NCBI GenBank assembly: GCA_905250115.1
Contig: CAJNOI010000116.1
Coordinates: 158,664-177,027, forward strand
Source of the DNA: Adineta steineri
Lineage: Eukaryota
Direction: 5' to 3'
DNA: 18,364 nucleotides
The notes under the pieces were generated by a model. The model searched no databases. It had not been told where the DNA came from and saw only the letters and a program-made list of their open reading frames with translations. Shown in pieces: positions 4,558 through 6,723 of the stretch (positions are counted from its first letter, which is position 1; each line of letters opens with the position of its first letter). Position numbers and translations under genes: made by a program.

Positions 4558-5298
4558 TGTGATGGTATACTCTTCTTTGATGTAATTAATTATTTATATT
4601 TCTCTGTAAATATCTCTGACGGTTTATATATGACTATAAAGCATTCGTCGTATTGCGTATATTCACTTGAAAACTCGATTATACTTTGTAATAACAGATC
4701 AGTATTCTTTCTTGAATCAGATGATACTTAATGTTCGCGATATTAACTGAAAAAAGTAAAGTTAAAAGAACAACAAAATAAAGTGATAATGGAATTAGAT
4801 ATGAAAATGATTTGAATCTTCACAAGGACTATCGAATCAATCGTTATAAAATATGTATCGATATCGATTTGATCTTTGGAAAATGATATTTCGTTTCGAA
4901 TTCTGTACAGTTTAGAAATAAACTAATCAGTCTTAATTCTAAATTGATACTGACTATCATGTCTTGTTCGTAACGTGCACATTCACCTATTTTTTATTCT
5001 AACTATAAAATAGAACAAGAAAATAATAATTATTCTTCGATTGATGACTTCTATAGAATGCAGTAGCATATAATCAACTTAAATAATATTCATTCATTGA
5101 TATTAGTCGATTGTTCGTATATGTATCGAACTCAATCCTACTCGAAATTTATCTCAATACGTCGTTGTTTTTCGAATATTTATTTAAATATGTGTCTAAT
5201 ATCTGTAAGAAGTAACAGAATCTTGTCAAAAAAATTTCCACAAAGTAGTAATAAGTATTTTAATCAAAATGTATTTCGAGAAGAGTAAAAGGACATAG

Positions 5299-5354
5299 AC
5301 TTACCGTTTGAAAAGCGACCATGTAATTTCTAACGAAGAAACGCGCTTATATAG
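5299..5354 (-). promoter_or_regulatory. Putative upstream promoter plus short non-coding leader exon for GPCR copy 2. On the minus strand: TATA box CTATATAAG (5346..5354), about 41 nt, then donor CG|GTAAGT (exon end 5305, intron from 5304).
   Basis: The minus strand reads catCTATATAAGcgcgtttcttcgttagaaattacatggtcgcttttcaaacg|GTAAGTcta.

The same TATA box plus consensus donor is conserved in unit 3 (TATA 8666..8674; donor exon end 8625).

It lies about 750 bp upstream of the GPCR ATG. A candidate acceptor, atatttacag|AG, lies about 55 nt upstream of the ATG at 4557. Confidence 0.4.
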
Positions 5355-6723
5355 ATGTGAAGAGGCGAAGAGAGAGAGATTATCAAATTTAAATAGAAAA
5401 CTAAAAAGCAAGGACATTAATGACAAAAGAGAAACCGAGGGTGAAAAAGTAGTTAGCTGAGAACCTCGACAGATATAATACGCATAGGTGAATCAAAATC
5501 TGTAATTTATTTAACTTATAGTCGTTTATGACATTAAAAAAAGTAAAAATTTGTTAGTGTCAAAAGTTTTGAAAACTTTTGACTACTGTGTTAATCATAA
5601 TCATTATCAAAAAAACATATTCAATAATGTAAATCTTGTAGTGGAGAATTTTTTCATATTTCTATTGATAATTGAACATTCTCTACAAAATATATACTTC
5701 GTACTTTTTCAATGATACAATTATCGAATTCTCTAAAATTAAAACTGTTTCCGATATGAGTTGGAAATCTTTCTAAATCAAACATATATTCAATATTAAA
5801 TAATTCTTTTATTCTTCAATGTTTAACAATTTCCAGTTATGAAATAAAGTTACAGTGACCAGTTTTTTTTTTCCATAAAATAATATATAAAATGTTCTCA
5901 AAGAACGATAATTCATCTAGGTAGAGGATTCTGCATGTGTATCAGTTCAGGTACCCGGAACTTTGTTAGTTCTATTATTATCATTTCTAATGAGCGCACG
6001 TCACAGGAGTTAGTCATGCTTATTTCTTTTGCCTGAGTTTCTTTTTGTTTAGGAAAATATATCAGTAAGGACAATCTTCCATTTTTGTATATTTTATATC
6101 GAATAAGATAAGAAACAATAAATTAGATTAGATTTTGATACATATATAAAAGAAAAATAGTTAAGCATTTTTGTTTTTATTTCGAAGATGTTATAAAAAA
6201 AGTGAATGTGAATAAAAATAAATTATTAGACTTCAGTTTATAATGAGCCATTTTTATAATTAGATGGTAAGTTATCTGGGAATAAAAGTAACATCTAAAA
6301 AAGAAATAATAATGAGTTACAAGCATGATTTCTTTCTTTTCACTATCTCATCTCTTTTATCTTTTTCGTTTGATATTTTTTTATCCTCTTTCTATTACTG
6401 GTGACATGAAAAAACAATCTAGTCTTTTTTATCTGCTTGAAATCTATGTTTGAGTTTCAATAAAGTTTATGTAAACTAATAAATAAAGACTCATACTATA
6501 TTTCAACAGAAAACAATCTTTTTTTCAGTTGACGGTGTTAGGTGTGGATTTGAATGTCTTCTGTTCATCAACCACAATACACCCACACTCAAAGGTTTTT
6601 TTTATATTAATTGATGATTAATATGAAATAAAATGGCAAAAAATTATTTACATCAATCAAAGTAAGAAGAGTCAATGTTCTTATTATATTGAGTATTTTA
6701 TTTGTCAATAATGAATGAAAAAA

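Follow-up and report, generated by a model that had tools for sequence, protein, structure and literature searches.

Alternative upstream promoters, short non-coding leader exons and introns within the 5′-UTR are familiar features of animal GPCR and chemoreceptor genes, those of the mammalian olfactory receptors being a well-known example. In promoters of the olfactory-receptor type, the first exon is non-coding and lies several hundred bases ahead of the coding exon, a promoter belonging to each gene is repeated in every unit of the tandem array, and paralogues differ from one another by the loss or decay of upstream exons. These traits have predicted counterparts in the rotifer receptor array described here. 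However, the predicted exon of this array is only about 20 nt long, its TATA box is strong, and a second TATA promoter is located proximally, at -73 from the start codon. The host differs as well, in that a rotifer trans-splices a spliced leader (SL) onto most of its mRNAs, so that a donor for cis-splicing competes with trans-splicing.

The other system that comes close is found in the bdelloid rotifers themselves. Bdelloids trans-splice a 23-nt leader, donated by SL RNAs of about 100 nt, onto more than 50% of their mRNAs (PMC1925144), and the sequence of this leader is GGCTTATTACAACTTACCAAGAG (PMC3795323). As far as bdelloid SL RNA genes are described in these two papers, which cite Pouchkina-Stantcheva and Tunnacliffe (2005), they share with our locus a TATA-type promoter, an exon of about 20-23 nt, a GT donor, and a unit of about 100 nt with a U-rich tract. 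Measured against the same descriptions, the exon of our locus is unrelated to the 23-nt SL and varies among copies, a stable fold is missing, and the copies are linked to the receptor units rather than making up a dedicated multicopy gene.

The receptor array and its upstream block

The DNA analyzed here, called the window, is the whole stretch of 18,364 nucleotides from the bdelloid rotifer Adineta steineri, and it is AT-rich, with 25-35% GC. It contains three tandem units on the minus strand with a repeat length of about 3.3-kb, each of which comprises, according to our gene models, one three-exon gene for a class-A GPCR of 371 aa. Right of the array come a major-vault-protein (MVP) gene and further genes. 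The spliced product of unit 2 matches, at 100% identity, an NCBI 'unnamed protein product [Adineta steineri]' carrying Pfam 7tm_1, and its next-best matches are A. steineri paralogues at 72-88%.

Exons 841-1446, 465-782 and 49-240, minus strand: GPCR gene of unit 1 (gene model)
3163-4557, minus strand: GPCR gene of unit 2, with exons 3952-4557, 3576-3893 and 3163-3354 and its ATG at 4557
Exons 7487-8092, 7113-7430 and 6724-6915, minus strand: GPCR gene of unit 3, with its ATG at 8092 (gene model)

Upstream of the genes of units 2 and 3 lies a block that is missing from unit 1. Its limits are defined by what unit 1 is missing, as determined by pairwise and multiple alignments and by BLAST, and they fall near those proposed in an initial annotation of the same sequence.

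5217-5561, minus strand: block of unit 2, 345 nt, lying 660-1004 nt upstream of the GPCR ATG (4557)
8515-8884, minus strand: block of unit 3, 370 nt, upstream of the GPCR ATG (8092), defined on the same basis

These two copies are 70-76% identical overall and 94% identical across an 86-nt core, and alignment and BLAST of the whole window revealed no third copy. For comparison we used arrays from five other A. steineri assemblies (L001-L006), in which L001 and L006 correspond to As_ASTE804 and L002 to As_ASTE805 (PMC7943196); each of these loci either adjoins the same MVP gene or represents the far end of an array. In them, essentially every GPCR copy has the block upstream, always in the same orientation and at a distance of 565-1330 nt from the ATG. 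Altogether 22 copies were scanned, 3 of which belong to L001 and recur in the overlapping locus L006, leaving 19 distinct copies, and one of the 19 is a 'solo' block whose GPCR has been deleted.

No RNA-seq of A. steineri was available to the annotators of its genome, and the published annotation relied on A. ricciae reads (PMC7943196). Our literature search for A. steineri RNA-seq, bdelloid operons and start-site data turned up no usable transcript resource.

A TATA box and a splice donor at fixed spacing

Inside the block, a distal TATA box is followed by a short predicted exon and a consensus 5′ splice site.

5346-5354, minus strand: distal TATA box CTATATAAG of unit 2 (column conservation 0.92-1.0 except for the last base, in 13 non-redundant copies)
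8666-8674, minus strand: distal TATA box CTATATAAG of unit 3, equivalent to that of unit 2
5305-5324, minus strand: predicted non-coding leader exon of unit 2, about 20 nt, ACATGGTCGCTTTTCAAACG, with its 5′ end placed by the TATA spacing and an Inr-like TTACAT
8625-8644, minus strand: predicted leader exon of unit 3, ACATAGTCGTTTTTCAGACG, equivalent to that of unit 2
5299-5304, minus strand: consensus 5′ splice site GTAAGT of unit 2 (per-column conservation 0.85-1.0)
8619-8624, minus strand: consensus 5′ splice site GTAAGT of unit 3, equivalent to that of unit 2

The distance from the TATA motif to the donor CG/GTAAGT is exactly 41 nt in units 2 and 3, just as the initial annotation had located these elements. 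The same annotation took them for the signature of a promoter with a short leader exon, and this reading is borne out to the extent that the TATA box, the short exon and the consensus donor are kept, together with their spacing, across many paralogous copies. By itself, one pair of TATA and GTAAGT is not significant against chance. The window contains GTAAGT about as often as expected (11 vs 10.1), and the pattern TATAWAW-N20-50-GTAAGT occurs 4 times against an expectation of 0.66, two of these four being the paralogous block copies. Support for the motif pair comes from its conservation across paralogues, and not from its occurrence in any single copy.

Both motifs are intact, with a spacing of 47-49 nt, in 16 of the 22 scanned copies (13 of the 19 distinct and 10 of the 13 non-redundant ones). 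Conservation was assessed on the 13 non-redundant copies, whose pairwise identity ranges from 69 to 97%. Over the 14 motif columns, i.e., the TATA octamer and the donor hexamer, the mean majority frequency is 0.934 compared to a background of 0.833 (sd 0.054), a score reached by only 2.2% of equally spaced placements. Moreover, the TATA region (5366-5347) and the exon end with its donor (5314-5295) rank as the second and third best-conserved 20-nt windows of about 500 nt. Identity among the aligned copies is fairly uniform, at about 80-90%, over the whole intergenic region, and the conservation signal is modest, since the array is of recent origin and gene conversion may be keeping its copies alike.

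The distance from the TATA box to the exon end agrees with a start some 30 nt away from the box. In the geometry of unit 2, 49 nt separate the first T of the TATA box from the last base of the exon; the Inr-like TTACAT occupies +28 to +33 from the first T of TATATAAG, with its A at +30, and a start anywhere from +29 to +33 would yield an exon of 17-21 nt closed by GTAAGT. What counts against the predicted leader exon is its size, 20 nt being unusually short for a first exon.

We put at roughly even the chance that this ancestral block holds a distal alternative promoter with a short leader exon and that it was secondarily lost from unit 1, and the promoter activity of the block, taken as a separate claim, is likewise finely balanced. 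The position of the start site and the choice of acceptor are predictions of the same kind. In the proposed scenario, the block would provide RNA polymerase II with a distal, alternative core promoter, made up of the TATA box and of the Inr-like TTACAT about 30 nt downstream, and its transcripts would begin with a non-coding first exon of about 20 nt that ends in the consensus 5′ splice site. This leader would then be cis-spliced to a downstream acceptor, for which two sites are favoured, TTACTTCTTACAG at 102 nt downstream of the donor and the invariant TTTTTTCAG at 189 nt ahead of the ATG.

A different account, possible but rather doubtful, holds that the TATA box and GTAAGT are fortuitous or formerly functional, that they have been carried along by recent duplication of the unit and by gene conversion, and that they have no present role in transcription start or splicing, the loss in unit 1 being without consequence. 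The near-uniform identity of all aligned intergenic DNA and the ordinary frequency of GTAAGT in the window agree with this account, as does the presence of a proximal TATA promoter in every unit. Furthermore, the TATA box or the donor has decayed in three non-redundant copies (L001 5540, 8597, and 21146), all of which precede intact 371-aa GPCR genes. Given these decayed copies and unit 1, which has an intact ORF and no block, the block is dispensable for keeping the gene. Against a neutral relic stand the high rank of the TATA and donor windows in conservation, with a joint score in the top 2.2% of placements, the fixed spacing, and the agreement of the arrangement with canonical TATA-Inr spacing. 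The diverged copy in L005 speaks in the same direction, in that its core is 90% identical, whereas the block as a whole is only 74% identical.

The initial annotation had further translated an ATG within the mini-exon (MVAFQT) and proposed that, if spliced to an acceptor shortly before the GPCR ATG, it would act as a uORF. The translation is correct for unit 2, but unit 3 has ATA at that codon. The ATG is a substitution private to unit 2, the other 18 distinct copies reading ATA, GTA, ATT, CAC, or AAA, and the uORF idea finds no support. Coding potential of the leader together with the downstream 650 nt was considered as well and rejected, as an ATG is found in a single copy and the copies often differ by indels whose lengths do not preserve a reading frame.

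Candidate acceptors and the proximal promoter

Three candidate 3′ splice sites (A, B, and C) are found between the donor of the block and the coding exon, and a proximal TATA box is found in each unit.

5203-5215, minus strand: candidate acceptor A of unit 2, TTACTTCTTACAG (102-nt intron, next exon from 5202)
8501-8513, minus strand: candidate acceptor A of unit 3 (124-nt intron)
2457-2469, minus strand: candidate acceptor A of unit 1, retained but orphaned
4747-4761, minus strand: candidate acceptor B of unit 2, CTTTACTTTTTTCAG (189 nt before the ATG, 558-nt intron)
8281-8295, minus strand: candidate acceptor B of unit 3 (344-nt intron)
1632-1646, minus strand: candidate acceptor B of unit 1, equivalent to the unit 2 site
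4604-4612, minus strand: candidate acceptor C of unit 2, TATTTACAG, the site of the initial annotation (AG at about -47)
4623-4630, minus strand: proximal TATA box TATATAAA of unit 2 (first T at -73 from the GPCR ATG)
1512-1519, minus strand: proximal TATA box of unit 1, equivalent to that of unit 2
8157-8164, minus strand: proximal TATA box of unit 3, equivalent to that of unit 2

Acceptor A lies at the very edge of the block, and its YAG keeps its alignment column in 9 of 11 aligned units. Directly beyond it comes the most strongly conserved non-coding stretch (5149-5223), with 87-92% identity in 14/14 copies. Acceptor B (TTTTTTCAG at -189) shows CAG and a pyrimidine tract in all 11 aligned units. 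The AG of acceptor C is kept to within 1-2 nt in 10/11 aligned units; it lies 25-26 nt past the first T of the proximal TATATAAA and coincides with the start site predicted for that box, at -45 to -40, immediately 3′ of the AG. Given the fact that acceptor C, which the initial annotation had chosen, falls at the expected start of the proximal TATA box and that two better candidates are at hand, it is the least likely of the three.

A cap-proximal donor in a transcript from the distal promoter would make the upstream acceptor a site for cis-splicing and not for trans-splicing. In the distal promoter scenario, the donor of the block would in this way convert a would-be outron into an intron.

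The neighbouring MVP gene has a TATA box at -74/-76, which is the geometry of the proximal TATA box of the GPCR genes. The proximal TATA promoter, present in all three units, is probably the main promoter of the receptors, and because it is conserved at -73 with an MVP-like geometry, a second promoter is not necessary. Since all units keep this box, unit 1 can probably still be expressed from the proximal promoter alone. Homologues in A. ricciae (L007) and A. vaga (L008) have a proximal TATA box and no upstream GTAAGT, and their upstream DNA is unalignable. At a protein identity of only 46-53% these homologues are too diverged, so that their lack of GTAAGT is uninformative rather than negative.

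The proximal promoter also bears on a reading that we regard as unlikely, in which the block is the promoter or regulatory module of a separate non-coding transcript, or acts on the array in the manner of an enhancer, and its RNA is not joined to the GPCR coding exons. Such a transcript could be, for instance, a short spliced RNA with its end close to the conserved AATAAA (5183-5188). That the GPCR has a proximal TATA box of its own suits this idea, and so do the nearest good acceptor, just 102 nt away, the best-conserved non-coding stretch, which comes after acceptor A and includes the AATAAA, and the lack of a conserved strong donor after acceptor A that would link onward to the GPCR. On the contrary, the block is always upstream of a GPCR in constant orientation, AATAAA is common in DNA of 25-30% GC, and weak donors (GTATAA, GTTTGT) are used in the MVP introns of the window, so that onward splicing would be possible.

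Loss of the block from unit 1

It had been reported in the initial annotation that unit 1 lacks the block through a clean indel. Indeed, the conserved flanks abut in this unit and leave nothing but a junction.

2471-2479, minus strand: deletion junction of unit 1, a single kept repeat copy, in sense orientation AACGATTTT, followed directly by ATTACTTCTTACAG

In intact units the block is bounded by a 9-nt imperfect direct repeat, AACGATTTT / AAAGATTCT, identical at 7/9 positions. The intact sequence runs from ...AACGATTTT directly into TGACACTAAC..., through the block, and from TTGA AAAGATTCT directly into ATTACTTCTTACAG; that of unit 1 reads ...GTAGTTACTG AACGATTTT and then at once ATTACTTCTTACAG, the retained repeat copy being the upstream one. 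When compared to the intact units of L001, L002, and L006, the upstream region of unit 1 aligns to either side of the block, the two alignments overlapping by 9 nt, and these intact units have 363-391 extra nt between the flanks that abut in unit 1. Because a direct repeat flanks the block and one copy of it is kept, the difference points to a deletion in unit 1 and not to an insertion in units 2 and 3. The nearest relatives of unit 1 all bear the block, namely unit 2 (94.1% gene identity) and the L001 gene at 10001 (91.8%).

The block is thus very probably ancestral to the GPCR repeat unit rather than inserted, with unit 1 having lost it by microhomology deletion. The deletion would have removed about 345-390 bp between the 9-nt repeats, either via microhomology-mediated repair or by replication slippage. 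The junction is much like those of known microhomology-mediated deletions (MMEJ/replication slippage), in which one repeat is kept and the sequence between the repeats, here about 350 bp, is precisely removed, and nothing about it is unusual, the repeats being imperfect and the upstream copy retained. As unit 1 is without the block, the paralogues may therefore differ in promoter usage.

The initial annotation had thought that the block could be an inserted element. In this reading, a mobile element (MITE, SINE, or solo LTR) would have brought a promoter upstream of units 2 and 3. Its sharp limits, the short imperfect direct repeats at its ends and an A-rich end on the plus strand would be in keeping with this. 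The idea has become very improbable for several reasons. The block occupies the same position in every other unit examined (19 distinct copies), and only unit 1, placed in the midst of block-bearing relatives, shows the empty site, with a junction that fits a deletion between direct repeats. There are no terminal inverted repeats common to both window copies, a search for inverted and direct repeats at the block ends having returned only AT-rich chance matches and one palindrome specific to unit 2. Nor are there copies away from GPCR units in the window or in about 100 kb of fetched A. steineri loci, and the 27-mer of the conserved core, TCTTCAYATCTATATAARCGNGTTTYT, has 0 matches in JGI metagenome contigs.

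Comparison with spliced-leader genes

Given the widespread SL trans-splicing of bdelloids (PMC1925144), we also considered the block as an SL-RNA-like or other small-RNA gene, in which a donor for trans-splicing would be made up of the TATA box, the exon of about 20 nt, GTAAGT and a stretch of about 100 nt with an Sm-like AAUUUUUUGA at its end. Apart from the size of the exon and its donor, which are like those of an SL RNA gene, a conserved A/U-rich ATTTTTTGAAAAG about 90 nt downstream fits this picture. The rest of the evidence leaves it with hardly any credibility. The mini-exon is unlike GGCTTATTACAACTTACCAAGAG, which has 0 matches in the window with up to 3 mismatches allowed, and it varies between copies at several positions, while the 'intron' part contains 45-nt indels. 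Folding of the putative 103-nt RNA gave no advantage over shuffled sequence (z = 0.08). Rfam offered nothing relevant, either for the whole window at the gathering threshold or for 5100-5700 under permissive settings, where no match appeared even at E <= 10. In the test for an Sm site (RAU4-6GR), tracts like AAUUUUUUGA were conserved, yet they lie inside the pyrimidine tract of acceptor A, which may explain the conservation of the U-run.

It is scarcely more than conceivable that each unit has an SL-like mini-exon gene of its own, whose exon is joined to the GPCR directly downstream and also, in cis across units or in trans, to the acceptors of other GPCR genes in the array; if true, the array would have a leader system of its own in addition to bdelloid SL trans-splicing, with a possible part in choosing which receptor is expressed.

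Implications for the receptor genes of bdelloids

The view of the locus has shifted from a possible inserted element with a uORF to an ancestral promoter-like block that was deleted from one copy. As such, the block would be an ordinary kind of regulatory element for tandem receptor genes and is unsurprising to specialists. Should the distal promoter prove real, these rotifer receptor genes would be served by two promoters, one of which a single paralogue would have lost through a simple deletion, a small and clean example of how tandem duplicates diverge in their regulation. The locus would then also illustrate, for a bdelloid, how a donor near the cap settles the choice between cis-splicing and SL trans-splicing.

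Sequence features in and around the block

The promoter-like block (345-370 bp, with a TATA box, predicted short leader exon and GTAAGT donor) lies upstream of units 2 and 3 of the three tandem GPCR genes. The block, its surroundings and the upstream region of unit 1, which lacks it, carry the following features.

5173-5192, minus strand: best-conserved 20-nt segment, CATATTTAAATAAATATTCG
5559-5583: perfect palindrome (12+12 nt) at the upstream limit of the block in unit 2, GTCAAAAGTTTT-G-AAAACTTTTGAC
8585-8600: degenerate second exon end and donor, CTTCAAACGGTAYCAAGT
1645-1684, minus strand: TATATAA-N27-GTAAGT of unit 1

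Across the aligned copies of the block region, positions 5173-5192 form the most conserved 20-nt segment of the whole region (conservation 0.958). This AT-rich near-palindrome contains AATAAA and directly follows candidate acceptor A, the putative 3' splice site at 5203-5215; it may serve as a poly(A) signal or bind a factor. The palindrome at the block edge is found in unit 2 only among the block copies compared, having originated by an internal deletion of approximately 17 nt relative to the other copies.

Longer variants of the block carry the degenerate exon end and donor copy approximately 40-60 nt downstream of the first, and many such copies occur in L001, L002 and L004, homologous arrays from other A. 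steineri assemblies; the 45-nt piece containing it is absent from unit 2. The TATATAA-N27-GTAAGT pairing of unit 1, judged from the sequence, is almost certainly fortuitous, because its GTAAGT arose by substitution within the pyrimidine tract of candidate acceptor B, 16 nt before that site, where the other units have TTTAACTTTAC.

Telomere-like repeats and the end of the MVP gene

3008-3025, 6575-6595, 14838-14875, 17261-17290: short telomere-like stretches, GGGTGTGGGTGT / CACCCACACTCA
10498-12410: MVP (major-vault-protein) gene
12440-12525: telomere-like repeats after MVP

Short interstitial telomere-like stretches recur in the window and in the "long-class" units of L001 and L002, and one lies approximately 130 nt 3' of each GPCR stop codon. 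In other assemblies, the upstream regions of the long class contain longer, inverted sets of them. Degenerate telomere-like G-rich repeats (GTGGGTGCAGATGTGGGTGGGTGCGGA...) also directly follow the MVP gene, which appears truncated: its product is called in other assemblies as 529-530 aa with Vault domains only, and after ...EHFTHINSS the open reading frame continues as hydrophobic junk. This end could be an old break healed through telomere addition.

Possible gene conversion, and gene loss, in the arrays

49-1446: unit 1 gene
1447-3162: unit 1 upstream region
L001 15828-16249 (= L006 1320-1630, in an overlapping array): "solo" block

Sequence comparison shows unit 1 to be a mosaic: the gene itself is nearest to that of unit 2 (94%), whereas the upstream region, only ~76% identical to that of unit 2, groups in the long class with those of the L001 gene at 10001 and the L002 gene at 13665 (85-89%). 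This pattern suggests that gene conversion was limited to the coding part. The solo block retains an intact TATA box and donor together with ~530 nt of downstream leader region, and no GPCR gene lies between it and the start of the next unit; thus, the GPCR arrays also lose genes yet retain the block.
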